The notes under the pieces were generated by a model, which did not search any database, was not told the origin of the DNA, and saw only the letters and a list, made by a program, of their open reading frames with translations. This document shows, one piece after another, positions 4,146 through 31,786 of a DNA stretch of 32,000 nucleotides; the stretch's first letter is position 1, and each line of letters begins with the position of its first letter. The DNA is from an uncultured Terrimonas sp. (GTDB lineage Bacteria > Bacteroidota > Bacteroidia > Chitinophagales > Chitinophagaceae), in the NCBI GenBank assembly GCA_964445775.1, contig CAYUMH010000004.1, forward strand, positions 112,420 to 144,419, in the 5' to 3' direction. Made by a program: the position numbers and the translations under genes.

Positions 4146-4360
4146 AAATGTTTAATTAATCAGCAGCAAGGTATAAAACATTAAAAAAGCATTTGTACCC
4201 GCCACAGGGTATATTGCGGGTTATATTGTTATACAGATACAATGCGGAAAACATTAATTTTGAGTGGTTATTAGTAAGCTGTTACGATTGAATGTGATAT
4301 AAAAACTTAAAATGACTTATTTTTTGATAAGTCATTTTGTATTATCCCGGCAGGTATAAA

Positions 4361-9803: not shown

Positions 9804-11333
9804 ATGAAAAAAATAACTTCAGTTTTATTGCTTTTAGCCACAGGGATGATGGTGATGACAGGCTGTAAAAAAGACCTGCTGAATCAAAATGCTCCTGATC
9901 AGTTAACTACGGATAATTTTTATACTTCTAAGGAAAAAGCCCTGTCGGGACTTGCCGCCGCCTATTCACAACTGGAGAGTTTTGTAGGCTGGGATAATTT
10001 TGTTGAGGCAAGGTCCGTAAGGGAATTCTACCGCGAGGATTATGTGAAGCCGGGAGATGATGCTTTCAACTATCCCTGGTGGATAGATCATTACAATTTT
10101 TCTTTTACATCGGGCAATTATGCCATTGATCTTTTATGGAGAGATAATTACCGGGGCTTGAACTTTACCAACCAGGTGTTGGGTAATGTTGCTAAAATGC
10201 CTGCTGAATTAATAGATGAAGCCAGCCGGAAAGAAATTTTAGCGGAAGCCAGGTTTTTAAGGGCTTATTATCACTTTAAATTATTGGTCAATTTTGAAAA
10301 AATAATTATCCGTGATAAAGTGCCTACTTCGGAAGCGGACCTGCCCAAAGCTACTTCTGAAAGAAAAGAAGTGTATGATATTATTATTGAAGATCTGAAA
10401 GCGGCAGAACAGGACCTTCCTTTAAAATCAAAACGTCCGGCTACAGAATTGGGCCGTGCTACCAAAGGCACCGTACAGGCCTACCTGGGTAAAGTGTACC
10501 TGTACAGGGCGGGTGAAGAGCCGGCCAATGCGGCGGCCTATTACACGGCGGCAGCAACCAGCCTGAACAATGTTATCCTGTCCGGGGAATATGATATGGA
10601 AACCAACTTTGTTGGCATGTTTAACGGTACCGTTAAAAACGGTACTGAGTCTGTATTTGAACTGCAACAAACTGCTGATGCATCTAATGGCGCCGTGTAC
10701 CGCTCGTACCTGGCTGATTGGATGGCTGCCTGGGAATTGGGCGGGTATGGTGAGATATATGGTACACAAAGATTATTGACCGAAATGCAGAAAGAGGGAA
10801 AAGTAGCAACCGGTAACTTATACGATCCGCGTTTATACCAGACCATGATTTTTGAAGATGCTTATTTTAATGATGATGCTAACCCTCGTGTATATGGTTA
10901 TACTTATGACGAGGTATTTGAAAACGGGTCGGGTGTACTGGCATTTAAAAAATGGATTCCGGCAGATATAACCCAGCTGGGACGTTCGCTGGCCATTAAT
11001 ATGCCGCTGATGCGTTATGCCGATGTGGTATTGATGTATGCGGAAGTATTGAATAACCAGGAAAAATTTGGCGATGCCATGGCGCAGGTAAATAGTTTGA
11101 GAACAAAACGAACCATGCCTGTTTTAGCGCTGAATAACAAACAGGCAATTTTTGACCAGATCATACACGAACGTGTTATGGAATTTACATTGGAAGGAAG
11201 CCGGTTTTATGATCTCAGGAGATGGGGATTACTGCAGCAAAATATGCAGGCAGCCGGAAGAACTTTTTCTGCGGATAAGGCTTTTTATCCTATTCCTTTA
11301 AAAGAAACCATCAACAATCCGCTGGTAAGGTAA
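9804..11333 (+). CDS. susD: SusD/RagB-family nutrient-binding outer-membrane lipoprotein
   Basis: 509 aa with a lipoprotein signal peptide and Cys (LLLLATGMMVMTGCKKD). SusD-like TPR-like helical core and conserved C-terminus (RVMEFTLEGSRFYDLRRWG). Lies 19 nt after susC. Confidence 0.93.
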   Translation: MKKITSVLLLLATGMMVMTGCKKDLLNQNAPDQLTTDNFYTSKEKALSGLAAAYSQLESFVGWDNFVEARSVREFYREDYVKPGDDAFNYPWWIDHYNFSFTSGNYAIDLLWRDNYRGLNFTNQVLGNVAKMPAELIDEASRKEILAEARFLRAYYHFKLLVNFEKIIIRDKVPTSEADLPKATSERKEVYDIIIEDLKAAEQDLPLKSKRPATELGRATKGTVQAYLGKVYLYRAGEEPANAAAYYTAAATSLNNVILSGEYDMETNFVGMFNGTVKNGTESVFELQQTADASNGAVYRSYLADWMAAWELGGYGEIYGTQRLLTEMQKEGKVATGNLYDPRLYQTMIFEDAYFNDDANPRVYGYTYDEVFENGSGVLAFKKWIPADITQLGRSLAINMPLMRYADVVLMYAEVLNNQEKFGDAMAQVNSLRTKRTMPVLALNNKQAIFDQIIHERVMEFTLEGSRFYDLRRWGLLQQNMQAAGRTFSADKAFYPIPLKETINNPLVR

Positions 11334-11424: not shown

Positions 11425-14400
11425 ATGGTTAAAAAAAGTTGCTTCGGTTTTTTATTCGTTTTATTCATTGTAAATATTATAACTGCGCAGGAAATAAAAA
11501 ATGATTGGGAAAATCCCGGACTTCCTGTACATAATACCATGAAGCCGGCTGCCTGGTTTATTCCCTATCCCGGTGAAGCAGCTGCTCTGGCAAAAGGCAA
11601 TAGCCCCTTTGTAAAATCACTGGATGGTATATGGAAGTTTAACCTGGTGAATACGCCTGCAGAACGGCCTGCGGCATTTTATAAAGACAATTACGACCTG
11701 CGCAAATGGCATGATATAAAAGTACCGGCAAGCTGGCAGACCGAGGGTTTCGACCGTTTTATTTTTACCGATGTGGAATATCCCATTCCTGTGAATCCAC
11801 CATATGTGCCGGCCGATTATAACCCTGTAGGTTCCTATAAAAAAAGCTTTACTATTCCCGAAAACTGGAAAGGGAAAGATGTTTTCATTCATTTCGGCGC
11901 AGTCAGTTCTTTCTTTTATCTATGGATCAATGAACAGTATATTGGTTTTAGCAAGGACAGTAAAACAGAAGCAAAATTTGATATTACGCCTTACCTGAAA
12001 AAAGGACAGAATACCGTGTCGGTGCAGGTTTTTCGTTTTAGCGACGGTTCATACCTGGAAGGGCAGGACATGTGGAAGCTGAGCGGGATAGAAAGAACAG
12101 TGTACCTGACGGCCCGTCCTCCGTTTGCTGTGTATGATTTTTTTGTAAAGGCTTCGCTGGATAAGCAGTATAAAGATGGCCTGTTCAGTTTAAAAATTGC
12201 GTTTAATAAAAAGCCATCCGCCCGGGAAGCGCAGCAGTCTGTTCAGGTAAAAATTATTGATGAAGAAGCGAATAATAAAATTCTTTTTGAAGCTACACCC
12301 GCTATTACGCCAACAGGGGAAATATCTATCAACGAAGTCTTTCCCGGCATAAAAAAATGGAATGCCGAAACACCGCATTTGTACACACTTATTATTAACC
12401 ATATTAACAAAGAGGGGAAAATAATTGAAACTATCAGTCATAAAATTGGTTTCAGGAAAGCCGAAATATTACACGGTCTTTTTTTATTGAACGGTGTGGC
12501 GATAAAATTTAAAGGGGTGAACCGGCATGAGTTTGACATGATCAACGGGAAGGTGATCAACAGGGAGCAGATGATCCGGGATATTAGATTATTTAAAGAA
12601 TATAATATCAATGCGGTAAGAAACAGCCACTATCCTAATGCTCCGGAATGGTATGCCTTATGTGATCAGTACGGTATATATGTAGTAGATGAGGCGAATA
12701 TTGAATGTGACGGCATGAGTTTTTCGCCATTAAAAACTTTATCGGATAAAGCCGGTTGGAAAAATGCTTACCTGAACAGGACGGAAAGAATGTTTGAAGC
12801 AAACAAAAATTTCGCAAGCGTTATAACCTGGTCTTTGGGAAATGAGAGCCAGATGGGCGATAATTTCATCGCTACTTATCAATACCTGAAATCGGTTGAC
12901 GATAGCCGCCCGGTAGCTTATGAGCCTGCGAGCAGAACGGATTATTCAGATGTTTTTTTTCCGATGTATAAATCTTTGAATGTGATGCAGGAGTATGTGA
13001 AAGAATGGCGCAGCAAACCTTATATCCAGTGCGAATATGCGCATATGATGGGTAACAGCGGCGGCAATTTAAAAGAATACTGGGACCTGATCTACAGCAA
13101 TGAACAGTTACAGGGAGGATATATATGGGATTTTTCGGACCAGACCTTCCGCATCAAAGATAAAAACGGCAGGGATATCTGGGGCTATGGCCGGGATATG
13201 GGTAAGGTAGGCGAAACAAGCGATACCAGTTTTTGCGCCGATGGATTATTTTCAGCCGACAGGAAGCCACATCCGCAGGCATTTGAGCTAAAAAAAATAT
13301 ACCAGCATATTCATTTCAGTCCCGTTGATTTTGCTGCAAACAAAATTGACATAACCAACCGTTTTGATTTTACCAATCTTGGTCAATATAATTTTGAGTG
13401 GTATATAAAAGGTAACGGTGTAATGGTGGCACAGGGAAAACTAGACCAGCTGGATATAGCGCCGCATACAACAAAAACAATCCAATTAAATATACCCGTC
13501 TTTGATATAAAGCCGGGCGTAGAATATTTTTTAACCATCAATGCCAGGACCAAACAAAAATCGGCTTTATTGCCGGCAGATTTTTTACTGGCTTTTGAAC
13601 AGTTTAAATTACCTGTATACATAGAAAAAGAAGGGGGAGTAGTAAGTAATTTGCCTACACTGGAGTTATTACAAACCAATGACCAGGTAAAAATTGCTGC
13701 ATCATCATTTGCTGTTGTGTTTGATAAAAAAAGCGGTTGGTTATCCGGTTACCATTTACAGGGTGTAGCGATTATAAAAGAGGCTTTACAACCTCATTTC
13801 TGGCGCACAGCAACGGATAATGATATTGGTAACAGCCAGCAGATACGTTGTGCCGTTTGGCAGGATCCACTGAGAACGGCTGTATTGGATTCCATAACGG
13901 TGAAACAATTGGATAAACAACATATAGAAGTGAGTACTTTTCATTACCTGCCCGATATTAAGGCAAATTACCTGGCTACATACAGGGTAGCAGCCAATGG
14001 ATCAGTACAGGTGAATATTGAAATGCTGGCTTCGGCAGGGGACTTTCCCGAAATGCCCAGGTTTGGGATGAAGGTTATTTTGCATAAAGACTTTGGTCGT
14101 GTAAAATGGTTCGGGCGTGGCCCGTTTGATAATTACGAGGACCGTAAATCGGCGGCGAGTATTGATCTGTACCAGATGCCGGCCGACTCCCTGTTCCACC
14201 CCTATGCCCGGGCACAGGAAAGCGGGTATAGGACCGATGTGCGGTGGATAAGCCTGACCAATAAACAGGGACTTGGCCTGATGGCAGAAGGAAGCCCTGT
14301 TATCAGTACCGGTGTTTTACACTTTGATATGCATAAGCTGGAGTTTAATAAAGATGCGCCGGAAAATAACCACGGAGGCTCCATGATTAATGATGACCTG

Positions 14401-16562: not shown

Positions 16563-18878
16563 ATGCATTTTAATGAAACCTTTATCCGGCAACTGGCGAA
16601 TGACCAATACGGGCTGGATATAAAAGTAAGCCGGCTGAAAGGATACGATGAAGAGAATTTTTTACTGGAAGACAGAGTGGGAAAGAAGTATATCCTGAAA
16701 GTAGCAACGGAGCAACACAACTACGGTTTTATTGCTGCGCAGGTGGCTGTTTTGCAACATCTTTCCGGAACGGATTTGAAGGACATGTTCCAGCAAATTG
16801 TACCCGATATACAGGGCAACCCCATCTTTACTGTAAAACATTCCGGTGCAGTTTATTATATCAGGGTGCTTACTTACCTGGATGGAATATTCTGGGCAGA
16901 TCACAAAGACCGTACAGATGTTTTATATACTGACCTGGGTAGTTTTTTAGGTAAGATGGATAAGGCCTTACAAAATTTTTCACATGCGGCCATCCACCGG
17001 CGTTATACCTGGGACGTGACCACGGCCGCCGATGCGTATACGAATGTAAAATATATCAGGGATCATGAACTGCGCAGGATGGTTGGCTATTTTTTACTGC
17101 AGTTTGAAACAGAAGTAACGCCCTTTCTTCCCTCGTTACGACAGGCCTATATTCATAATGATGCAAATGATCTGAATATTTTAGTTGCTAATGACAGGAT
17201 AAAAGGATTGATCGATTTTGGTGATATGGTGCACAGCGCCCTGGTGGGTAACCTGGCCATTGCCTGTACCTATGCCATGTTCAATACGGACGATCCCCTG
17301 CATGCCGCTGTTAAAATAGTGGAAGGGTATCATGCAGTGTACCCGTTGACGATGCAGGAAACGGACCTGCTCTATTATCTGATAGCCGCCAGGTTATGCA
17401 TCAGTCTTACACAATCTGCCTATAATGCTTCATTAAGCTCAGCGAATGAGCATCATTTTGTGTCGGAAAAACCGGCCCGGGATTTATTATACAGGCTGAT
17501 TAAAATAAACCCGGTAAAGGCACAGGAAAGTTTCCGGTTATCATGTGGCTTTCCATCGTTAATTGATAAAACTGAGGGGTATGGTCCATTACTGCAGGAA
17601 AGAAGAAAACATATCGGCCGGAACCTGAGTATCAGTTATCAGCAGCCTTTAAAAATTGTAAAAGGTGCCTTGCAATATTTGTATGATGATCGGGGTAATA
17701 CATTTGTTGACTGCGTTAATAATGTAAGCCATGTGGGGCATTGCCATCCTGTTGTGGTAAAAGCCGTACAAAAGCAAATAGCCACACTTAATACCAATAC
17801 CAGGTACCTGAATGATGCTATTACCGATTTTGCGAAAGCGTTGATTGCAACCTTACCGCCTAAGCTTTCTGTATGTTATTTTACCAATTCGGGCAGTGAG
17901 GCAAATGACCTGGCGATACGGATGAGCCGGCATCTTACAAAGCAACAGGACGTGATCGTGTTAGATCATGCTTACCATGGCACAACAACGGTAGCCCTGG
18001 AGATGAGTCCTTATAAATTTGACGGCAAAGGAGGGTTTACACAAAAGCCGTACATCCATAAAGCTGTTTCACCCGATTTATACCGGGGTGAATTCCGTTA
18101 CCAGCACGAAGATGCCGGCATGCAATATGCAAACGCTGTAAAGACGATTATTGAGCAGCTATCGGCGGATAATAAAGGTGTTGCCGCTTTTATCTGCGAA
18201 ACACTGTTAGGTGTTGGCGGCCAGATACCTTTACCTAAAAACTACCTGAAGGAAGTATATAAACATGTACGGGCTGCCGGAGGTGTTTGTATTGCCGATG
18301 AGGTACAGGTTGGCTTTGGAAGAGTGGGTGAAAAATTCTGGGGCTTTGAATTGCAGGATGTGGAACCGGATATTGTTGTTTTAGGTAAACCAATAGGGAA
18401 CGGGCATCCGCTGGCGGCAGTGATTGTAACCGAAGAAATTGCAGATTGTTTTAATAATGGAATGGAATATTTTAATACCTATGGAGGCAATCCCGTTTCA
18501 ATGACCACGGGCCTGTCGGTGTTGCATGTAATAAAGGATGAAATGCTGCAACAACACGCAAAGGAAACAGGGGAGCATCTTCTTAGTCTACTTACTCTTT
18601 TAATGCATAAATATGCCATTATTGGTGATGTAAGGGGGCATGGCCTGTTTATTGGTGCCGAACTGGTCCGTAGCCGGGAAACAAAAGAACCGGCTGTAGC
18701 CGAGATCAATGCGATTGTGGAACGGATGAAAGAGAAGGGATTTTTGTTGAGTACAGACGGCCCTTTGCATAACGTATTAAAGATAAAACCACCCCTGGTA
18801 TTTAATAAAGCGGATGCAACCGAAATGGTAACCATGCTGGAGGAGGTATTGGAGGAGATGAACATGGATAAGCTGTAA
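16563..18878 (+). CDS. Bifunctional fusion: hydroxylysine-kinase-like (APH-fold) domain + class-III aminotransferase-fold phospho-lyase domain
   Basis: 771 aa with no signal peptide. Residues ~1-335 resemble human HYKK/AGPHD1 ([27 protein letters not shown], Brenner motif [12 protein letters not shown] at nt 17151-17186, LIDFGDM). Residues ~345-771 resemble PHYKPL/ETNPPL ([44 protein letters not shown]). The PLP lysine lies in [12 protein letters not shown], with the Lys codon at 18387-18389. Confidence 0.9.
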
Positions 18879-18968: not shown

Positions 18969-20318
18969 ATGACGATTCGTATATTACGTGTGCTGACTTA
19001 TTTACGCAAGAAACTGCGTTTACCCAACGACCCGGAAAGTATCAGGCTGTCTACGGAACGTATCAGGGACAGCGCTGAGATTGCTGGTGTGAACTTATGG
19101 GTACTGGTGATCGCTATTTTTATTGCCTGCCTGGGCTTAAATACTGATTCGGTAACCGTGGTCATCGGTGCGATGTTAATATCGCCGTTGATGGGCCCTA
19201 TATCGGCTCTCGGTCTGGGCCTGGGTATTAACGACTGGGAACTGATAAAGAGAGCCCTGCGTAATCTTATTGTAGCGGCCTTGTTATCGCTTATTACTTC
19301 TACTGTATTTTTTCTTATCAGTCCCATGAAGGATGCGGGACAAATGTTATTATCACAAACCTCTCCCTCCTTATATGATGTATTGATCGCATTTTTTGGT
19401 GGCCTGGCCAGTATTATGGCCAGTTCCAGTAAACTAAGGGCCAGTAATGTAATACCAGGTGTGGCCATTGCTACTACTTTAATGATGCCCCTGTGTACTG
19501 CAGGATATGGTATATCGATAGGAGAGTGGCGGTATATTGCCGGAGCTATTTATATGTTCTTTATCAACTCGGTATTTATTGGTGCCGCTACTTTTTTAAT
19601 GGTCAACCTGTTTGGTTATCCTAAAGTAAGTATTCACGATAGTAAAAAACGTAAACGTACCAGGGCCATTATTGCCACATTGCTCATCATTACCTTTATT
19701 CCCAGTGTGTACCTGACCTATCATATTGTTACCCGTTATTTTTTTGAAAAGAATGCCAATGCTTTTATTAAAAACGAAGTACAGGATAAGGATCATTTTG
19801 TGATCACCAAAAGATTGTTGTATAACCGGAATAAACCTGTTATTGAGTTGAGTATGCTGGGCCAGAATATTGACAGTGTTCACTATGCCGAACTGGTAAA
19901 ACGCATGCCCAAATATTTCCTGGGCCATGTGGGTCTGGTATTATTCCAGGGCCAGGATAGCCGGGTGGCCGCCAAGTCATATTTTGACCAGATAAGCAGC
20001 GGGCTTGAAATGAATAATGCTGCTATTCAAAATTTATACCGGCGGGTGGATAGTCTGCAAAAAATAACTGACCAGCAGTTGTATGTGGATAGCCTGGAAT
20101 ATAAAATTGGTAAGCTGGTACACACGGTTGATAGCAGTGTACAAAGCGTGCGTGTATCCAGCGTAATAGCCTACAATATGGTGAAAGCTAAAAAAGATAC
20201 TTCCTGGACTGCACAGCTGCAGTTTCAAAAAAATCCTTCACCGGCTGACCGTAATAAAATGACTGATCTGCTAAAAGAAAAGTTAGGCCTGCAAAATATG
20301 CAGCTGCGTTTCGATTAA
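18969..20318 (+). CDS. DUF389-family integral membrane protein with ~200-aa C-terminal soluble extension
   Basis: 449 aa. The multi-TM N-terminal half has the DUF389-type motif GAMLISPLMGPI. The C-terminal half is hydrophilic. Function unknown. Confidence 0.7.
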   Translation: MTIRILRVLTYLRKKLRLPNDPESIRLSTERIRDSAEIAGVNLWVLVIAIFIACLGLNTDSVTVVIGAMLISPLMGPISALGLGLGINDWELIKRALRNLIVAALLSLITSTVFFLISPMKDAGQMLLSQTSPSLYDVLIAFFGGLASIMASSSKLRASNVIPGVAIATTLMMPLCTAGYGISIGEWRYIAGAIYMFFINSVFIGAATFLMVNLFGYPKVSIHDSKKRKRTRAIIATLLIITFIPSVYLTYHIVTRYFFEKNANAFIKNEVQDKDHFVITKRLLYNRNKPVIELSMLGQNIDSVHYAELVKRMPKYFLGHVGLVLFQGQDSRVAAKSYFDQISSGLEMNNAAIQNLYRRVDSLQKITDQQLYVDSLEYKIGKLVHTVDSSVQSVRVSSVIAYNMVKAKKDTSWTAQLQFQKNPSPADRNKMTDLLKEKLGLQNMQLRFD

Positions 20319-21591: not shown

Positions 21592-21663
21592 AGCGGAGCA
21601 AAGGTAGTAGTTATTAGGTTTTTCCAAAAGTTCAAAGGCGGTTGGAAATGGGCATTTGTATTA

Positions 21664-21788
21664 AGTATATAGTATTTAGTATATAGATTAGTAACCTGTT
21701 ACTGCACGACAACCTTGAACTCTTAAACCTTTGAACTCCTTGAACCTTCATCACGACAACCTTAAACCTTATACCTTAAACTTTAAAC
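21664..21788 (-). repeat. Copy 1 of a ~125-bp inverted repeat pair, 3 nt downstream of the SNF2 stop codon
   Basis: The reverse complement of 21664-21788 aligns by hand to 28160-28285 with about 11 mismatches and 1 indel (~90% identity). It contains an internal duplicated core, aaggttgtcgtg (x2, ~50 nt apart), degenerate gtt[ct]aagg runs, a GTAAC-N2-GTTAC mini-palindrome and four TWWATAC heptads. Confidence 0.85.
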
Positions 21789-21791
21789 CCT

Positions 21792-24647
21792 CTACGCAAA
21801 CAGGTACGCAATATCCTCCTCCGACAGGTTTTGAATAAATCCATCGTCGGTGGAGATAAGGTCAGCTGAAAGTTTTTTCTTTTTGCTTTGTAACTGGATG
21901 ATCTTTTCCTCGATACTGTCCTTACAAATCATTTTGTAGGCAAATACACTCTTGGTCTGGCCAATACGGTGGGTACGGTCAATGGCCTGTTGCTGTACCG
22001 CCTCATTCCACCAGGGGTCAAAGAGAAATACATAATCTGCTGCGGTTAAGGTAATACCGGCATTGCCGGCTTTCAGGCTAATGAGGAAGAGGTTGGTATC
22101 ATTGTCTTCCTGCTGGAAAGCATTGACCATCTCCATTCTTTTTTCCGCCGGGGTTTGCCCGTCGAAATGGTAGTATTTGAGTTGTTTCTTTTTGGCCTGT
22201 TCTGCAATCAGGTTTAACATGCTGGTGAACTGTGAAAATACCAGCACTTTATGTTTTGCCAGTAAATTATCCAGCTCTTCAAACAGTACCTGCATTTTAA
22301 TAGATTCACTGGCAGTTCTATCCTCTTCGGGCAACAACAGGGGAGAGTTACATACCTGCCGTAATTTTAAAATACCCTGTATTACAGCCAGTTTGGCCTG
22401 CCCCACACCTTTTTGCTGGATATCAGTAAAGATATTGCCGCGTATCTGCTCCTTGATACTCTCGTACATATCCCGCTGGCTATTGCTCATTTCACACCAT
22501 AATACTGTTTCCGTTTTTTCGGGCAGGTCAGTAGCAACCTGCTCCTTGGTACGGCGTAATACAAAGGGCGCAATGATCTTTTGCAGGTATTGCATTTTCT
22601 CTTCATCGCCAAAACGGTCAATGGGATCGGCATATTCTTTTTTAAAGAACTCACGGTTGCCAAACATGCCGGGTAATACGGTGTTCAGCTGCGCATACAA
22701 ATCGAAGGTATTGTTCACTACCGGCGTACCGCTGAGGGCAAAACAGTAGGTTGACCATATTTCACCCACTGCCCGGGTAATTTGAGCCGAGGGGTTTTTA
22801 ATATTATGGCTTTCATCAATGATCATCACGCCAAACTGCAGGGCCTTTAGTTTTTCTATATCTGAACGCAGGGTGCCATAGCTGGTAATATAAACCTGTA
22901 CATTTTTATCCTGTAACACCGCATCATTTCGCTGGGCGCCATGGTGTACCGAAAGGTTTACATCCGGTAAAAACTTTTTAAACTCCTGTTCCCAGTTATA
23001 TACCAGGGAAGCCGGGCAGACAATGATATGTTGTTGTGCAGGGTGGGCTTCAATAATGGAAGCGATAAAGCAAATGGTCTGTAATGTTTTACCCAGGCCC
23101 ATATCGTCGGCCAGGCAACCACCGGCACCGGCATCGGATAGTAAACGCATCCACTCATATCCTTTTTGCTGGTAACTTCTCAGATCGGCCTGTATAGCGG
23201 CTGGTGCCGTGTATACTGTTTCACCTGCCAGCCAGGCCTGCCAGCGTTTCCACCAGCTGGTATAATTAATGGCGGGTTGTAAGGACAGGTTATCACCATC
23301 CTGTAAAGGAATAGCCAGCCAGCTGGCAATGGTGAGATCCTGTTTATTTACCTTCCCGTGTTTAATGAACGTGGCATACTGTTTATGCCAGTCATCGCCC
23401 AGTACACCCAGGCTGCCGTCCTTTAATAATACGGCTCTTTGACCGGCCAGTAATATTTTCTGCAGTTCGTTCAACGGTACGGTTTCGGTACCAAACTGTA
23501 GTACAAATTTGATACGGATAAACTGTTCCGTGGCTTCCAGCTGTTCCATGGTGGTAATGGCTTTATGGGTGGAGTAGCGGAAATGTTTCAGCATGTCCAT
23601 ACCCAGCAGGTCAATACCACTGGTCAGTAATTTATGATAGGCTTTTAAAAACCATTGTTTTTTTTGTGCTTCGGCAAAGGACAGGTAATAATAACCGTTT
23701 TTCTGGTCGGGAAATTTTGGGTGCAGTCCCTCCAGCAGGTCCAGTAATTGTTTTTCCTGTGTTTCATTACGGTTAATGGTCACCAGTTGTCCTTTTTCCG
23801 ATAATTCGGTTACAGGCTGCCAGGCTCCTTCCATAATATAACCATCATAGCTCCATTTTGGCGTAAGCATCAGGAAAGCGCCACTTAATTCACTCAACAC
23901 TACCTGGCCTACCGGCTCGGCCGTAATGGTGTTTTCGGTTTGCAGGCTATTGCGTTTAACCGGGTACTTGCCTTCCAGCTCCAGCAATATATACTGTATC
24001 AGGTCGGCAGGATTATAAGCATATTGTTCGGGTTGTTGCTGCCGCAGCCATTCCAGGGTCTGGTAATCACCGAAGTACAGCATGAAATACTCGTTACCGC
24101 TTTCCAGTAAAAAGTATTTGCGGGTAAAGCTGTCCAGCGCAAACGGGGTACCGTTAATATTTACCCAGGTGGTAAGATAATAACCGTCGTCCCTGGTATC
24201 CACTTCAAAACTTAACTGGGGCCGGTAGTTGCTGATGCTGCAGGGGGCTGTAAGCCAGCGTTTTTTATCCAGCAGTTCACGGGTATGGTACCATTTAACC
24301 AGGGGCATGAAGGGCTTGGCTTCCAGCAGCCGGTCATAATAATACTTTACCAGTTGCTGTTGCTGGAATTGCTGAAAGGGGAGGGGACTTTTTTGCAGGT
24401 TATACCGTTGTTTGATCTCGCTTACCGCTTTGTCCATATTATCGTCGCCAAAGCTGGCAAAAGCTTTCAGCGCTTCCTGTGGTAAATGGGCAAATTGCTG
24501 TTGTAAGCCTTTGTTTACAATGGCGTTGGAGGTATATACAGGAGGTTTGGACTCCTTATCCACCTTTAATAATTGTACAAATCCTTTCGGGGTATCAATT
24601 TTATGTGCAAACAGTACCAGTGCGTTATTCGTCTTATTACTCGCCAT
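21792..24647 (-). CDS. SNF2-family helicase/ATPase with ~480-aa uncharacterised N-terminal region
   Basis: 951 aa. SNF2_N motifs (LADDMGLGKTLQ, IIDESHNIKN, LSGTPVVNN, VLRRTK) and helicase-C motifs (LISLKAGNAGITLTAADYVFLFDPWWN, QAIDRTHRIGQ). Confidence 0.92.
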   Translation of the reverse strand: MASNKTNNALVLFAHKIDTPKGFVQLLKVDKESKPPVYTSNAIVNKGLQQQFAHLPQEALKAFASFGDDNMDKAVSEIKQRYNLQKSPLPFQQFQQQQLVKYYYDRLLEAKPFMPLVKWYHTRELLDKKRWLTAPCSISNYRPQLSFEVDTRDDGYYLTTWVNINGTPFALDSFTRKYFLLESGNEYFMLYFGDYQTLEWLRQQQPEQYAYNPADLIQYILLELEGKYPVKRNSLQTENTITAEPVGQVVLSELSGAFLMLTPKWSYDGYIMEGAWQPVTELSEKGQLVTINRNETQEKQLLDLLEGLHPKFPDQKNGYYYLSFAEAQKKQWFLKAYHKLLTSGIDLLGMDMLKHFRYSTHKAITTMEQLEATEQFIRIKFVLQFGTETVPLNELQKILLAGQRAVLLKDGSLGVLGDDWHKQYATFIKHGKVNKQDLTIASWLAIPLQDGDNLSLQPAINYTSWWKRWQAWLAGETVYTAPAAIQADLRSYQQKGYEWMRLLSDAGAGGCLADDMGLGKTLQTICFIASIIEAHPAQQHIIVCPASLVYNWEQEFKKFLPDVNLSVHHGAQRNDAVLQDKNVQVYITSYGTLRSDIEKLKALQFGVMIIDESHNIKNPSAQITRAVGEIWSTYCFALSGTPVVNNTFDLYAQLNTVLPGMFGNREFFKKEYADPIDRFGDEEKMQYLQKIIAPFVLRRTKEQVATDLPEKTETVLWCEMSNSQRDMYESIKEQIRGNIFTDIQQKGVGQAKLAVIQGILKLRQVCNSPLLLPEEDRTASESIKMQVLFEELDNLLAKHKVLVFSQFTSMLNLIAEQAKKKQLKYYHFDGQTPAEKRMEMVNAFQQEDNDTNLFLISLKAGNAGITLTAADYVFLFDPWWNEAVQQQAIDRTHRIGQTKSVFAYKMICKDSIEEKIIQLQSKKKKLSADLISTDDGFIQNLSEEDIAYLFA

Positions 24648-24826
24648 TACCTTCTCCTTATATAAAAATGGGTGGCAAACTTATAACAACCGGCCTGTAA
24701 TCGGAAATAATAATATCAACGCCCGGGCCTTAAATATTTAAAAAAATGATAATCGGTAGCCCGAATCCAGTGGGTTAGCATTATCTTCAGTCCACCTTAT
24801 CAACTGACAAATTCGAACTGTTTATT

Positions 24827-25345
24827 ATGATTATTCTTGAGACTGAACGATTGTATATCAGGGAATTTACTTATGATGATGCGCCTTTTATTATTGAATT
24901 GGTAAATAATCCCACCTGGCTTGAATTTATTGGCGATAGAAACGTGAATAACCTGGATGATGCCCACCGGTATATGCGGGATAAAATAATATACCTGTAC
25001 GAGCAATATGGGTATGGCCCCTGGTTGCTGGAAGATAAACACACCCATGAGTCCATCGGCATGTGCGGGCTCATTAACCGTGATTTTTTAAACGATACGG
25101 ATATTGGTTATGCATTGCTGCCGGGCTTTACGGGTAAGGGACTGGCTTTTGAAGCAGCCAAAGCGGTACTGGACTATGGTTACCGGGTGTTGCAACTGCC
25201 GGCCATTGTGGCTATTACCCTGCCTGCAAATACGGCTTCCATCAGGTTATTGCAAAAACTGGGTATGCAAAGCAACAGCAGTATACAGCCTCCGCAAAGC
25301 CCCAATACCCTTAGCCTGTTTGAGCCGGTAAAGATAAATAGCTGA
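24827..25345 (+). CDS. GNAT-family N-acetyltransferase (RimJ/RimL-like, Acetyltransf_3)
   Basis: 172 aa with the typical N-terminus (LETERLYIREFTYDDA) and an acetyl-CoA-binding motif-A-like segment (GFTGKGLAFEAAKAVLDYGY). Divergent from the SNF2 gene across a 179-bp gap. Confidence 0.88.
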   Translation: MIILETERLYIREFTYDDAPFIIELVNNPTWLEFIGDRNVNNLDDAHRYMRDKIIYLYEQYGYGPWLLEDKHTHESIGMCGLINRDFLNDTDIGYALLPGFTGKGLAFEAAKAVLDYGYRVLQLPAIVAITLPANTASIRLLQKLGMQSNSSIQPPQSPNTLSLFEPVKINS

Positions 25346-25532
25346 GTAAAACGGTTTTTTCTATAAAAACAGTAGGATAATGTGTTTACTGTTCTTATCT
25401 TAGGATGGCACTAACAACAAAATACAGGTGTTTTATAAAAAACTTACTATAATTTTTTGTTGAACCACTGTATTCGTTGTAATTTCATTTTTACTTCATT
25501 ACCTATCATTCCAACTAAAAAAACATTGATGT

Positions 25533-26201
25533 ATGGCAACAAAGAAAAAAGCCAAACCTTCACCTGCTAAAAAGAAAGCAGCTCCTAAAAAGGCTGTGAA
25601 AAAGGCAGCGCCCAAAAAAGCCGCTAAGAAGGCAGCTCCTAAAAAAGCTGTAAAAAAAGCCGCTCCCAAAAAAGTGGTTAAAAAAGCTGTGAAAAAGGCA
25701 GCGCCTAAAAAAACTGCGAAAAAAGCCGCTCCTAAAAAGGCAGCGAAAAAAGCTGCACCTAAAAAGGCGGTAAAAAAAGCAGTGAAAAAAGCGGCGAAGA
25801 AAGTTGTTGCCAAAAAGAAAATAGCCACTAAAAAAGCCGCCCCTAAAAAGGCAGCGAAAAAAGCTGCTCCCAAAAAAGCGGTGAAAAAAGCAGCTCCTAA
25901 AAAAGCTGTAAGTAAAGCCGCTCCTAAAAAAGTGGTGAAGAAAGCGGCACCCAAAAAAGCAGCGCCAAAGAAAGCAGCGCCTAAAAAAGCGGTGAAAAAA
26001 GCAGCGCCTGCAAAACCGGTTAAACAGCCCGAAGCAAAAGAGGTATTTGAACCTAAAATAGCTCCGGCCCCGGAGGTAACACCGGCTCCTGTTGAAGAAG
26101 CACCGGCTGAAAACCGTCCTGCGGTACAGACCGACCTGTTTGATGCACCCTCTTCTCCTGTAGCGGGCGAAGATGAAAAAACAGAAGAAGCGCCTTTGTA
26201 A
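25533..26201 (+). CDS. Histone H1-like lysine/alanine-rich DNA-binding protein with acidic, proline-rich tail
   Basis: 222 aa. Residues 1-164 are almost entirely K/A/P/V, with 14 AAPKK units in a KKAAPKKAx nonamer pattern. Residues 165-222 are acidic and proline-rich (PEAKEVFEPKIAPAPEVTPAPVEEAPAENRP...GEDEKTEEAPL). A strong terminator follows. The antisense ORF 25499-25954 (FFTAFLGAA repeats) is a shadow. Confidence 0.85.
   Translation: MATKKKAKPSPAKKKAAPKKAVKKAAPKKAAKKAAPKKAVKKAAPKKVVKKAVKKAAPKKTAKKAAPKKAAKKAAPKKAVKKAVKKAAKKVVAKKKIATKKAAPKKAAKKAAPKKAVKKAAPKKAVSKAAPKKVVKKAAPKKAAPKKAAPKKAVKKAAPAKPVKQPEAKEVFEPKIAPAPEVTPAPVEEAPAENRPAVQTDLFDAPSSPVAGEDEKTEEAPL
25563..26024 (+). repeat. In-frame ~27-nt tandem coding repeat (KKAAPKKAx units) inside the H1-like gene
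   Basis: Repeated aaa-aaa-gcN-gcN-ccN-aaa-aaR-gcN-gtN blocks are visible directly. The units differ mostly at synonymous third positions (gca/gcg/gcc/gct, cct/ccc). Confidence 0.8.
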
Positions 26202-26224
26202 AAGAGCTTAAATAATATGTAAAA

Positions 26225-26250
26225 GGCCCGGTGTACACCGGGCCTTTTTT
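26225..26250 (+). terminator. Rho-independent terminator, potentially bidirectional (H1-like gene / mgtE)
   Basis: ggcccggtg-ta-caccgggcc stem followed by tttttt and preceded by aaaa. It sits between the convergent H1-like gene (stop 26201) and mgtE (stop 26285). Confidence 0.75.
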
Positions 26251-26284
26251 GCTATAAAAAACTATTTGCTAAAGCATTATTGCC

Positions 26285-27679
26285 TTATAAAAGACTGCCG
26301 CTTAAAAACAGGTAAGCTACCGAAAAATAAATGATAAGCCCCGTTACATCTACCAGGGTAGCGACAAAGGGGGTACTGGAAGCTGCGGGGTCAGCACCCA
26401 GCCTTTTCAATAATAAAGGCAGCATTGAGCCCATTAAGGAGCCCCACATCACAATACCCAGCAGCGAGCAGCCAACGGTTAAACCAATTGACATATAATG
26501 AATGCCAAATGTTTCAGGCGATAATAGATGCCAGATATAAATAATGGTTATGCCAAGGGTACACAGGGTGGTACCGAGCATTAAACCGGAAAGAATTTCA
26601 CGGCGCATGATCCGCCACCAGTCGGCAATGGTCACTTCGCCCAGGGCCATGGCCTGTATAATAAGTGTAGACGCCTGCGAGCCGCTGTTACCGCCACTGG
26701 AAATGATCAGGGGAATAAAAGTAGCCAGTATTACCACTTTGGCAATTTCATCCTGGAACTGCTGCATGGCCGATATGGTGATGAGCTCGCCAAAGAAAAG
26801 GATGATCAGCCAGATGATCCTTTTCTTGTATAACCTGAACAAGGGGATTTCAATATAGGGCTCTTCCAGTGCAGCTGTACCACCCATTTTCTGCATATCC
26901 TCGGTAAACTCTTCCTCTGCTACCCATAAAATATCATCAATGGTTACAATGCCTAACAGTTTATTACTGCCGCTTACCACGGGCAGGGCCACCCGGTTAT
27001 TCATCTTAAACACTTCGCTTACCGTTTCCTGGTCATCTTCGGGGTGCAGGGCAATAAAACGGTCATCCATCAGCTCCGATACTTTTTTATCCGGCGGGTT
27101 CAGGATAAACTCATGAATGCGCAGGTCATCCAGCAGTTCGCCCTTTTTATTGATCACGTAAATAACGTTAATGGTCTCGCTATCCTTACCGTACTTCCTG
27201 ATGGTAGCAAATACTTCCTCAATGGTATTATCCGGGTACACATACACATAATCCGGCGTCATCAAACGGCCGATACTGTTCTCGGGATAACCCAATAGCG
27301 ATAAAGTAACCCTGCGTTCCTGTGGATCCAATAACTTGATCAGTTCCCGCACCGCATTACTGGGTAACTCTTCCAAAAAGTCGGTACGGTCATCCGCCGG
27401 CAATTCGTTCAGTAAAGAAGCAACCGTATTGGGAGGGAGGTCCTGGATAACGCTTTTCTGGGTGGTGATCTCCAGTATCTTAAATACACTGGCAGCACGA
27501 TGTACTGACATACCCGCAATGATACTGCTTTCATAATCAGGAAATTCGTACACCAGGTCAGCCACATCACTGATGTTCTGGTGGTTCAAAAACTCCTTAA
27601 TAGCCAGCTTGTCCTCCGTTTTAATAACGGCCTCAAACTGCTCTTTGATCGACAGATCGGTATCGTACATCTCGGACAT
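26285..27679 (-). CDS. mgtE: Magnesium transporter MgtE
   Basis: 464 aa with an MgtE N-domain (LLNELPADDRTDFLEELP), a CBS pair and a C-terminal TM domain carrying the signatures PLIISSGGNSGSQ and PFVATLVDVTGLIIYF. Confidence 0.93.
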   Translation of the reverse strand: MSEMYDTDLSIKEQFEAVIKTEDKLAIKEFLNHQNISDVADLVYEFPDYESSIIAGMSVHRAASVFKILEITTQKSVIQDLPPNTVASLLNELPADDRTDFLEELPSNAVRELIKLLDPQERRVTLSLLGYPENSIGRLMTPDYVYVYPDNTIEEVFATIRKYGKDSETINVIYVINKKGELLDDLRIHEFILNPPDKKVSELMDDRFIALHPEDDQETVSEVFKMNNRVALPVVSGSNKLLGIVTIDDILWVAEEEFTEDMQKMGGTAALEEPYIEIPLFRLYKKRIIWLIILFFGELITISAMQQFQDEIAKVVILATFIPLIISSGGNSGSQASTLIIQAMALGEVTIADWWRIMRREILSGLMLGTTLCTLGITIIYIWHLLSPETFGIHYMSIGLTVGCSLLGIVMWGSLMGSMLPLLLKRLGADPAASSTPFVATLVDVTGLIIYFSVAYLFLSGSLL

Positions 27680-27775
27680 GCCCCAAAATTAAGGGAATGC
27701 GGTCGGCATCAAATCCCCCGTTCATAAAAAAAAATGTAAACTTAACGCAAACGAAAAACCATTTACTTTGGGGCT

Positions 27776-28165
27776 ATGATTTTATCCAGTTTGTTTATTG
27801 CCCGTACTGACAATATGGGGCGGGGTGTTTTTACCAACCAGCCCATCGATGCCGGCGAAGTAATTGAAGTGTCACCGGTTATTGTAATGAGCCATGCCGA
27901 AAGGGAAAAGCTGGATGCCACCACCTTACACGATTATATATTTGAATGGGATGGTCATAACGGCTTGCAATGTTGTATGGCCATGGGCTGGGTACCCGTA
28001 TACAACCATTCCTATGCTGCTAACTGCGATTATGATATGGATTATGACGAAGAAAATATCATCATCAAAACCGTACGTCCCATACAGGCAGGTGAACAGT
28101 TATTTATTAACTACAATGGCGAGTGGAACGATGAGAAGCCGATCTGGTTTGATGTAGAAGTTTAA
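27776..28165 (+). CDS. SET-domain protein-lysine methyltransferase (minimal bacterial type)
   Basis: 129 aa with SET signatures GRGVFT (GxG), VYNHSYAANC (NHS motif) and AGEQLFINY (ELxxxY-type). Its stop codon lies within the first bases of inverted-repeat copy 2. Confidence 0.88.
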   Translation: MILSSLFIARTDNMGRGVFTNQPIDAGEVIEVSPVIVMSHAEREKLDATTLHDYIFEWDGHNGLQCCMAMGWVPVYNHSYAANCDYDMDYDEENIIIKTVRPIQAGEQLFINYNGEWNDEKPIWFDVEV

Positions 28166-28285
28166 AGTTTAAGGTTTTAAGTTTAAGGTTGTCGTGATGA
28201 AGGTTCAAGAGGTTCAACAGTTTAAGAGGTTCAAGGTTATCGTGCTGTAACAGGTTACCAATCTATATACTAAATACTACATACT
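28160..28285 (+). repeat. Copy 2 of the ~125-bp inverted repeat pair, starting at the SET stop codon
   Basis: See copy 1. gtttaaagtttaagg...aaggttgtcgtgatgaaggttcaag...ttcaaggttatcgtgctgtaacaggttacc...tatatactaaatactacatact. It has the same sense orientation relative to its upstream gene as copy 1. Confidence 0.85.
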
Positions 28286-28316
28286 ATTCATTGTTATTTG
28301 TCAACTGTCCATTGAA

Positions 28317-30975: not shown

Positions 30976-31007
30976 AATCTTAGATCTCAGATCTGAGATC
31001 TAAGATT
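30976..31007. repeat. 32-bp perfect palindrome between the dapB stop and the histidine-kinase start
   Basis: aatcttagatctcagatctgagatctaagatt is its own reverse complement and contains three AGATCT hexamers. Its function (terminator hairpin or operator) is unknown. Confidence 0.9.
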
Positions 31008-31734: not shown

Positions 31735-31786
31735 GATTTATAAATGAAAAGTAAAAAATTAAAAGTCAAAAATAGACAGTATATAT

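Follow-up and report, generated by a model that had tools for sequence, protein, structure and literature searches.

An inverted repeat pair at the ends of a gene block

The stretch considered here comprises 32,000 nucleotides (nt) of contig CAYUMH010000004.1 from an uncultured Terrimonas sp. (Chitinophagaceae; assembly GCA_964445775.1), and this whole 32-kb stretch is referred to below as the window. It contains two inverted copies of a sequence of about 125 nt, the arms, which lie 6.4 kb apart and adjoin the stop codons of two genes that point outward, away from the block between them, one encoding an SNF2 helicase and the other a SET protein. Such an arrangement invites the idea of a private regulatory element shared by the two genes. 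We argue instead, with a probability of roughly 0.6, that the arms are two copies of a modular family of dispersed intergenic repeats and have no function specific to SNF2 or SET. The arms and the genes between them are as follows.

21664 to 21788, plus strand: repeat copy 1, C-rich when read on the plus strand (module C, then cores, then arrays), with the array end toward the SNF2 stop codon
21792 to 24647, minus strand: SNF2 helicase open reading frame (ORF), 951 amino acids (ORF map and Pfam)
24827 to 25345, plus strand: GNAT acetyltransferase (Pfam)
25533 to 26201, plus strand: H1-like Lys/Ala-rich repeat protein, 222 amino acids (no Pfam family matched)
Between the H1-like and SET genes, minus strand: MgtE (Pfam)
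27776 to 28165, plus strand: SET protein, 129 amino acids (ORF map and Pfam)
28160 to 28285, minus strand: repeat copy 2, C-rich when read on the minus strand, with the array end overlapping the SET stop codon

The pair had originally been predicted from a hand alignment, with some 113 of 125 positions matching, and local alignment of 21664-21788 with 28160-28285 bears this out at about 90% identity over 126 columns. A repeat search of the window returns the same pair as two adjoining inverted sub-pairs set apart by one indel, namely 21720-21788 with 28160-28228 (69 nt, 90%) and 21664-21720 with 28229-28285 (57 nt, 93%). Since every other inverted repeat of the window is at most 34 nt long and only about 70-80% identical, the next best having 33-34 nt at 74-79%, chance is ruled out as the origin of the pair. 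The predicted contacts with the two stop codons likewise hold: copy 1 ends 3 nt from the SNF2 stop codon (21792-21794), and copy 2 begins among the last SET codons, so that the SET stop codon (28163-28165) falls within it. A profile of the family described below recognises both arms under nhmmer, copy 1 at 21658-21720 (E 8e-15) and copy 2 at 28285-28229 (E 1e-13).

Modules within the arms

Read in the C-rich sense, each arm passes from AGTATnn heptamers through a spacer of about 15 nt to a 16-nt core, CACGAYAACMTTRAAC, which is present twice and is accompanied by TTGAAC 8-9-mers and CTTAAAC heptamers up to the stop codon. The core, as CACGACAACCTTRAAC, lies at 21705, 21752, 28181 and 28229 (the last with one mismatch), so that the duplication of a core in each arm, part of the original prediction, is found with a distance of 47-48 nt between the two copies; the core pattern has these 4 matches in the window against 0.34 expected by chance. 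Tandem Repeats Finder (TRF) reports in both arms period-7 arrays (AGTATAT; AACCTTA/CTTAAAC) and an 8-9-mer TTGAAC array, its period-7 calls in the window being 21664-21686, 21758-21789, 28158-28190, 28263-28286 and, away from the arms, 30977-31006. The arms thus contain heptanucleotide arrays in the usual sense of head-to-tail 7-nt units in intergenic DNA, and the related genomes contain many more arrays of this kind. The individual parts are listed below in the order of the plus strand.

21664 to 21686, plus strand: module C of copy 1, AGTATAT/AGTATTT heptamers, AGTATATAGTATTTAGTATATAG, holding one of the two best-conserved family motifs (TRF and family alignment)
21705 to 21720, plus strand: core a of copy 1, CACGACAACCTTGAAC (pattern search)
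21711 to 21748, plus strand: tandem TTGAAC/TTAAAC array of copy 1, period 8-9 nt, lying between cores a and b (TRF)
21752 to 21767, plus strand: core b of copy 1, CACGACAACCTTAAAC (pattern search)
21758 to 21789, plus strand: 4.6 units of CTTAAAC-type heptamer at the array end of copy 1, stopping 3 nt short of the SNF2 stop codon (TRF)
28158 to 28190, minus strand: heptamer array of copy 2, GTTTAAG on the plus strand (TRF)
28181 to 28196, minus strand: core b of copy 2, CACGACAACCTTAAAC (pattern search)
28201 to 28235, minus strand: 9-nt AGGTTCAAG tandem array of copy 2, in plus-strand reading (TRF)
28229 to 28244, minus strand: core a of copy 2, CACGATAACCTTGAAC, with one mismatch (pattern search)
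28263 to 28286, minus strand: module C of copy 2, AGTATGTAGTATTTAGTATATAG on the minus strand (TRF and family alignment)
28286 to 28316, minus strand: remnant of module A, an outer GACAATG-type heptamer array, reading TTCAATGGACAGTTGACAAATAACAATGAAT, between copy 2 and the stop codon of a LuxR-type response regulator

The first heptamer unit of the copy 2 array provides the last codon and the TAA stop of SET (GTT TAA).

The full plan of a family member, in the C-rich sense, begins with two optional parts, the outer GACAATG-type heptamer arrays (module A) and a stretch of unique sequence about 55 nt long (module B). Module C follows, made of AGTATnn heptamers and containing the conserved motif AGTATTTAGTATA.AGAA, and after a spacer of some 15 nt the 16-nt core appears once or twice. 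The plan closes with 7-9-nt tandem arrays (TTGAAC, CTTAAAC) that reach the adjacent coding boundary. The order of modules A, B and C, core and arrays is fixed and their presence variable, that is, members of the family are mosaic combinations of a few parts. The two arms of the window lack module B, both in the family alignment and in the profile search, and of module A only the remnant at 28286-28316 is left, where relatives have 60-90 nt of array at the same site. Judged by their sequence, the 7-9-nt arrays have the look of slipped-strand expansions from the core's 3' end. Conservation across the family is highest in two motifs, AGTATTTAGTATA.AGAA and CACGAYAAC, which stand 14-15 nt apart; across about 20 aligned copies the spacer from module C to the core is 14-15 nt long in most, and its sequence varies. 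Taken as promoters (sigma-70-type, Bacteroidota -33/-7 or extracytoplasmic-function type), these motifs have the wrong spacing on inspection, with 23 nt between the best hexamers. A mini-palindrome noticed earlier, GTAACCTGTTAC, is indeed present at 21691-21702, yet it is not kept in relatives, which have GAAAACCTGATAC and similar sequences there.

Heptamer arrays are by no means confined to the arms. Unrelated period-7/14 arrays flank dapB in intergenic DNA of the window, at 30977-31006 (ATCTAAG x4.3) and at 31742-31773 (AAATGAAAAGTAAA x2.3), and the position of the ATCTAAG array near dapB is kept in a close relative (L005, 13385-13418). Because period-7 arrays of different sequence sit in other intergenic regions of both the window and its relatives, heptamer arrays are a general habit of these genomes, in line with what is known of cyanobacterial heptamer arrays and of the TAACTGA repeats (PMC4679880) discussed below.

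Conservation of the block and the pair in relatives

The SET protein of the window belongs to a 90%-identity cluster that includes Terrimonas rubra, and syntenic loci were compared from T. rubra (L002), a close relative (L005), a relative from a JGI (Joint Genome Institute) metagenome (L003/L004) and a more distant metagenome-assembled genome (MAG), UBA4857 (L008). Gene order and orientation are the same in all five genomes, the window included, and related repeats occupy both orthologous positions in each of the four relatives. The arms of these relatives are longer and modular, with an A array, a B module of about 55 nt, module C, spacer, core and TTGAAC/CTTAAAC arrays running to the stop codon, and their module content varies both between arms and between genomes. 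For example, arm 1 of L003 is without modules B and C, and arm 1 of UBA4857, which is also without module C, consists of a local hairpin made of the arrays. The comparison shows that an arm pair has stood at both positions since before the sampled Terrimonas-like genomes diverged. In Chitinophagaceae whose SET protein is 63-69% identical only MgtE and SET are linked, and the gap of about 50 nt after SET holds no element, so that the block and its arm pair are a feature of the Terrimonas-like clade. Arm 1 of L005 (3770-3810) has, inside module B, a 37-nt GC-rich hairpin insertion, CCCCGAGTTCCGCTATGCTCGTCGGGG..., which is missing from T. rubra, whose SNF2 gene is 98.5% identical.

Two short-read contigs of Logan from two public runs, L006 (6580 nt) and L007 (6523 nt), span the block from SNF2 to SET and end inside both arms, the family profile matching the first and the last 30 nt of L006. 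This is an assembler effect of the repeat: the arms act as an assembly break point, which explains why short-read assemblies break exactly at the ends of the block.

Dispersal of the family

A pattern consisting of the core and one array unit was scanned against a collection holding one genome per species. It yielded 21 loci, 11 of them in Chitinophagaceae; the other 10 are in unrelated phyla and look like chance matches. Among the Chitinophagaceae loci are another T. rubra site, its third (L025), and two additional UBA4857 contigs (L021, L029). A second pattern, combining module C and the core, gave 9 loci in a metagenome collection, of which 7 lie on six contigs of one assembly, PJTT01. Viral contigs, searched with both patterns as a check on a phage or mobile-element origin, gave zero matches. 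The exact patterns catch about 40-65% of known copies, and at this sensitivity the C-plus-core element was detected at 3 loci in the representative genome of T. rubra and at no fewer than 7 in PJTT01. Since nhmmer profiles turned up no additional unascertained C-plus-core copy in about 370 kb of fetched DNA, the full element is low-copy.

Twenty copies align over modules B and C, the spacer and the core, with a shared order of modules, and all copies examined are extragenic. The genes beside them have little in common: LolE/FtsX-like permease, fatty-acid hydroxylase, RlmI-like methyltransferase, FabH, RpoD-like sigma factor, tryptophan 2,3-dioxygenase, M28 peptidase, FtsI, PdxJ and PheS. At about 8 independent loci the array end adjoins the stop codon of a gene on the opposite strand, and at about 5 it precedes the start codon of a same-strand gene, which answers in the negative the earlier question whether copies always lie downstream of genes. 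By type of intergenic region about 6-7 copies are co-directional, 3 convergent and 3 divergent, a mix that is roughly as expected from placement regardless of gene orientation. A gene of 129 amino acids beside a local hairpin copy in one distant MAG (L022) resembled SET and proved not to encode a SET protein.

The smallest version of the element, a unit of about 45 nt made of GTTTAAG-type heptamers and the core GGTTATCGTG, forms the entire spacer between ftsI and murE in two Chitinophagaceae MAGs, at the following positions.

L019, 1390 to 1440: minimal array and core unit at the ftsI-murE junction
L020, 1900 to 1946: minimal array and core unit at the ftsI-murE junction

The MurE frame is open through the core at this junction and may start at a GTG within it.

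Module B, a repeat of about 55 nt, ACAAGWGWGYGACRCAA..GACGATGATAGTAGTA.TGCAGCTGGTAACA, also exists independently of the rest. It stands alone, and in high copy number, in the intergenic DNA of UBA4857 and PJTT01, with about one copy per 4-8 kb of fetched DNA, and the window has none. Examples are as follows.

L008: module B copies at 7022 to 7064, 10525 to 10580, 14294 to 14349, 17511 to 17565 and 19612 to 19668
L037: module B copies at 4176 to 4229, 10307 to 10364 and 12707 to 12751
L002: module B copy at 14212 to 14267

A small palindrome within the module changes in step on its two sides (GCGACGC versus GTGACAC). For module B neither a consensus RNA structure nor an Rfam match was found.

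Proposed homogenisation of the arms and turnover of the arrays

The SNF2 gene of the window is 91% identical to that of T. rubra and L005 overall and 77% identical at third codon positions. Orthologous arms are 80-83% identical, about what a neutral rate would predict to judge from the third positions of SNF2, as compared with 90% between the two arms of the window. Six substitutions in the outer part, from module C to core a, are common to both arms of one genome and differ between genomes, whereas five substitutions in the inner part follow position, arm 1 grouping with arm 1 and arm 2 with arm 2. Similarly, the two arms of T. rubra share an 87-nt tract that is 97% identical despite B modules of different types, and in the window both arms alike are without module B. 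This mosaic of genome-specific and position-specific substitutions shows that the two arms exchange sequence and indicates gene conversion between them; it is the footprint that short conversion tracts, recurring between inverted copies at a distance of 6.4 kb, would be expected to leave. Crossing-over between inverted arms would invert the block; no inverted arrangement is seen among the five assembled genomes.

Upstream of pheS, the orthologous regions of UBA4857 (L029, 7274-7730) and PJTT01 (L039, 4201-4680) have flanks that are about 98% identical. Three differences separate them: a heptamer array longer or shorter by two units, a module of 49 nt that contains a hairpin, and some 95 nt of core and array. 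The region is thus a hypervariable intergenic locus. Because array content differs between flanks so nearly identical, the arrays turn over very fast, which from the sequences compared is consistent with slippage and exchange between copies. Downstream of the lolE-like gene, the copy in three orthologues with a third-position identity of about 57% has different arrays, and the core, module C and module B are recognisable in each. The sites searched for an empty counterpart, namely the SNF2 and SET arms, the region upstream of pheS and that downstream of lolE, are occupied in every genome compared.

RNA structure, terminators and strand skew

A search of the window and 9 related loci against Rfam 15 gave no match at the gathering threshold, and a permissive search of the block and a full family member gave nothing at the arms even at E ≤ 10. 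RNAalifold, applied to 15 family copies on both strands, over the whole alignment and five sub-windows, returned zero consensus pairs; a stem upstream of module B (TACTGCAA...TTGCAGTA) occurs in only some copies and is not a consensus structure. The sense RNAs downstream of SNF2 and SET fold with z +0.4 and +1.3 relative to dinucleotide shuffles, and for the C-rich strand of copy 2, 198 of 200 shuffles fold better (z +2.3), its centroid structure being almost unpaired. A scan of 21628-21791 and 28166-28316 for terminators found no hairpin followed by a T-tract, as had been said of both arms from the sequence. The strand asymmetry that had also been pointed out is pronounced: the core-plus-array part has C:G ratios of 28:5 in copy 1 and 25:6 in copy 2, the most extreme C/G skew of any 78-nt segment in the 32 kb. 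The arms thus have the C-rich, G-poor and weakly structured composition, over about 80 nt, of a Rho-utilisation (rut) site, and have it only on the strand antisense to SNF2 and SET.

A different picture is seen in three distant MAGs (L015, L022, L027) and in arm 1 of UBA4857, where the arrays occur as local inverted pairs directly after stop codons and would form long hairpins of 110-140 nt (z -2.3 to -7.6).

L015, 2560 to 2680: local palindromic array and core unit
L022, 650 to 830: local palindromic array and core unit
L027, 1640 to 1750: local palindromic array and core unit
L008, 3650 to 3800: local palindromic array and core unit (arm 1 of UBA4857)

The arms of these hairpins co-vary between loci, GTTTCTG, for example, being paired with CAGAAAC in L022. 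Since local palindromic versions exist in distant MAGs beside the distant pairs, the arrays tend toward inverted pairs, local or distant, and the arms of the window are without a local partner. The palindromic unit of L022 lies between convergent genes, in the manner of a bidirectional terminator.

Surroundings of the block

Outside copy 1 lies a gene for an MFS transporter on the minus strand, and outside copy 2, likewise on the minus strand, are genes for the LuxR-type response regulator and a TPR histidine kinase. Copy 2 therefore sits between the convergent SET and response-regulator genes, with the stop codon of the latter 32 nt upstream of the arm in the C-rich sense. The Bacteroidota promoter consensus has the form TTTG...TAnnTTTG at -33/-7, and a candidate of this kind lies just outside copy 1.

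21599 to 21628, minus strand: probable MFS promoter, TTTG, 18 nt, TACCTTTG (read from the sequence)

It fits the consensus, is kept in T. rubra and is the probable promoter of the downstream MFS gene, which would put the next promoter on the far side of copy 1 from the SNF2 stop codon. A canonical bidirectional intrinsic terminator, AAAAGGCCCGGTGTACACCGGGCCTTTT, stands at 26221-26248, where the H1-like and MgtE genes converge, and is the source of weak sub-threshold matches in the permissive Rfam search of the block. The organism thus uses ordinary terminators, unlike at the ends of SNF2 and SET.

The block gathers four chromatin-type genes (SNF2 ATPase, GNAT, H1-like and SET) around MgtE. The H1-like protein is built of AAPKKAVKK-type units encoded by 27-nt repeats. 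Chlamydial SET proteins are reported to methylate H1-like Hc proteins, and by analogy it is a testable idea that the SET protein might act on its H1-like neighbour. Among the genes from SNF2 to SET, Pfam annotation finds no transposase, integrase, invertase or recombinase.

Interpretation and alternatives

The family is present at unrelated loci, has no fixed orientation relative to genes and contains arrays that are quick to turn over, and it is on these grounds that we favour reading the arms as two members of a dispersed intergenic repeat family. Of the five interpretations offered in the original prediction, that of a dispersed repeat of the MITE (miniature inverted-repeat transposable element) or REP (repetitive extragenic palindromic) type is best supported, since the element composed of module C, core and array recurs beside unrelated housekeeping genes. 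Dispersed copies in unrelated contexts, named there as the finding that would speak against a gene-specific role, were what the searches returned, the copies in the T. rubra lineage being few, not dozens. The arms would be held about 90% alike by homologous recombination (gene conversion) between inverted copies 6.4 kb apart, and the arrays would grow and shrink by replication slippage. The element would have no gene-specific regulatory role, and its likely consequences would be incidental: it would serve as a substrate for recombination, cause assemblies to break, and give any transcript that crosses it in one direction a C-rich, G-poor stretch without structure. The attractive notion of a private SNF2/SET regulatory element is unsupported, and a documented repeat family takes its place, which is also a compact and tidy illustration of gene conversion acting on intergenic repeats in inverted orientation.

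Several observations weigh against this interpretation. The copy number of the C-plus-core element is low, so that in the T. rubra lineage the SNF2/SET pair accounts for much of the family, and the evidence of dispersal comes from related genomes, the source genome being covered by the 32-kb window alone. The core, module C and parts of module B remain recognisable where third codon positions are near saturation (53-57% identity), and this persistence would reflect either purifying selection, that is a function, or gene conversion across the family. The constant length of the 14-15-nt spacer, with varying sequence, could mean a bipartite protein-binding site. Finally, no signature of mobility was found in the copies, in the form of within-copy terminal inverted repeats, target duplications, an empty site or a transposase. 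Should selection prove to be what carries the motifs past synonymous saturation, a conserved role in protein binding or Rho loading would merit a test.

The Rho-loading function, as a rut-like insulator, would operate through C-rich unstructured RNA made toward the array end, stopping transcription that runs antisense into SNF2, SET or the next gene, and copy 2 would be the Rho-dependent terminator of the convergent response-regulator/kinase operon. We regard this as unlikely. It is physically plausible, given the skew of both arms, the poor folding of copy 2, the lack of intrinsic terminators in the arms of an organism that uses them elsewhere, and the correct orientation of the response-regulator stop codon upstream of copy 2; its weakness lies in the gene contexts, since a gene reading in the C-rich sense lies upstream of the element at only about 4 of the 12 independent loci, the upstream neighbour elsewhere being divergent, and since copy 1 has no plus-strand gene feeding into it, the adjoining MFS gene being on the minus strand. 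Moreover, TTGAAC- or GGAAC-rich arrays are much less skewed, and arrays are swapped wholesale between near-identical genomes. A role as a terminator is likewise hard to reconcile with the ftsI-murE junction, which the minimal unit fills and where the MurE frame starts at or within the core. Less probable again is that the arms are protein-binding sites or boundaries, with AGTATTTAGTATA.AGAA and CACGAYAAC forming a putative bipartite site for a nucleoid-associated protein, a regulator or a recombinase, and with the inverted pair delimiting or co-ordinating the SNF2-GNAT-H1-like-MgtE-SET block. The same motifs occur as single copies beside unrelated housekeeping genes, the pair is not always symmetric (arm 1 of UBA4857 and of L003 is without module C), distant Chitinophagaceae link only MgtE and SET and have no element, and no candidate binding protein was identified in the analysis. 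What speaks for such a site is that the motifs and the spacer length are kept across about 20 copies while the spacer sequence varies, although constancy of length may merely reflect the rarity of indels in non-repetitive DNA, that the motifs persist between genomes with saturated synonymous sites, that the pair is kept at both block ends in all five Terrimonas-like genomes, and that the block encodes chromatin-type proteins. A more specific version, in which the bipartite motif is a predicted host-protein site, the inverted pair a boundary, insulator or synapsis pair around the chromatin-type block and the arrays tunable spacers, we rate slightly lower still.

The two remaining proposals are both very improbable. 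One holds that a G-rich extension on both outward messenger RNAs, acting as a shared element in the 3' untranslated region or as a small RNA, co-regulates SNF2 and SET after transcription through stability, a binding protein or a small RNA. The position of the arms at or within 3 nt of the stop codons, in the same sense relative to each gene, is as such a device would require, G-rich arrays directly follow stop codons at about 8 loci, and the arrays of other genomes form the long local hairpins described above; nevertheless there is neither an Rfam family nor a consensus structure, the sense RNAs of the window are not more stable than shuffles, the element lies upstream of a gene in the opposite sense at about 5 loci or fills the ftsI-murE junction, and array sequence is not kept even between near-identical genomes. 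Co-regulation of this kind, part of the original prediction, is thus unsupported. The other proposal treats the arms as sites at which the 6.4-kb block inverts, frequently or in a programmed way, or as the terminal repeats of a mobile 6.4-kb cassette. Inverted arms 6.4 kb apart with tracts of 87-125 nt at 90-97% identity, a conversion mosaic showing that arms recombine, and contigs (L006, L007) ending exactly in both arms could all be taken in this sense, yet such contig ends are an assembler effect, the block genes include no invertase, integrase or transposase, and the orientation of the block relative to the MFS and response-regulator genes is identical in the five assembled genomes, with no alternative neighbourhood reported, so that the earlier suggestion of inversion sites gains no support. 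A mobile cassette or transposon was rejected on similar grounds: MgtE-SET is an ancestral housekeeping pair in Chitinophagaceae, and no target duplication or direct repeats were found at the outer ends.

Comparison with known systems

As far as the literature searched and Rfam go, the repeat family is new to Chitinophagaceae. With REP sequences and bacterial interspersed mosaic elements (BIMEs; PMC2817692) it shares an extragenic, non-coding and dispersed distribution, a mosaic build from a few recurring modules and a frequent position directly after stop codons, and module B behaves in UBA4857 and PJTT01 as a high-copy short repeat in the same way. The REP unit, however, is a GC-rich imperfect palindrome of 20-40 nt with a stable stem-loop, whereas single copies of the present family contain no such palindrome and no stable hairpin; REP sequences typically exceed 100 copies per genome, as compared with the few loci of the C-plus-core element counted above at limited sensitivity; and the family, unlike BIMEs, is AT-rich, is dominated by 7-9-nt tandem arrays and occurs also in divergent, promoter-side intergenic regions. 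The fetched loci examined encode no REP-associated tyrosine transposase (RAYT), for which no dedicated search was made.

With MITE-type elements the family has in common a length of 50-450 nt and a non-coding, multi-copy, intergenic character, together with the local imperfect palindromes of L015, L022 and L027. A single copy is nonetheless without terminal inverted repeats, the outer GACAATG and inner CTTAAAC arrays not being inverted copies of each other, neither a target-site duplication nor an empty site was found, the three sets of orthologous sites compared being occupied throughout, and the copies examined are old and inherited at orthologous sites. No parental insertion sequence (IS) was found, the block being without a transposase and the viral contigs without a match; the genomes themselves were not searched for IS elements. 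The family fails defining tests for REP sequences (on the palindrome), MITEs (on terminal inverted repeats within a copy), intrinsic terminators and invertible segments.

Further parallels are found among heptamer arrays. Intergenic direct repeats of the heptamer TAACTGA are known from Beggiatoaceae, Cyanobacteria and a few Bacteroidetes (PMC4679880). Heptamers are the commonest unit length, which has been attributed to polymerase slippage, and some Bacteroidetes intergenic regions hold several different heptamer arrays; the same paper cites Mrazek et al. 2007 on long simple sequence repeats. Shared with the present family is the concentration of period-7 tandem repeats in intergenic DNA near start and stop codons; the TAACTGA sets, in contrast, are mostly immediately upstream of starts and in one orientation (PMC4679880), whereas our family has no TAACTGA unit, no orientation rule and conserved non-repeated cores.

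The nearest likeness overall is a double one: in architecture the family is closest to BIMEs and to the cyanobacterial heptamer arrays with embedded small dispersed repeats. The latter, the short tandemly repeated repetitive (STRR) sequences, were reportedly described by Elhai and colleagues in 2008 as heptamer arrays in which small dispersed repeats are embedded. As in these, different intergenic heptamer arrays stand side by side in the genomes considered here, and short conserved unique sequences in or beside the arrays recur at many loci. The differences are that the present family belongs to Bacteroidota (Chitinophagaceae), uses other unit sequences, keeps a fixed order of modules, gives no sign of recent mobility and has longer conserved parts, namely the 16-nt core, module C of about 23 nt and module B of about 55 nt. 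An architecture like that of the cyanobacterial arrays, with dispersed repeats embedded among heptamers, is thereby extended to the Bacteroidota.

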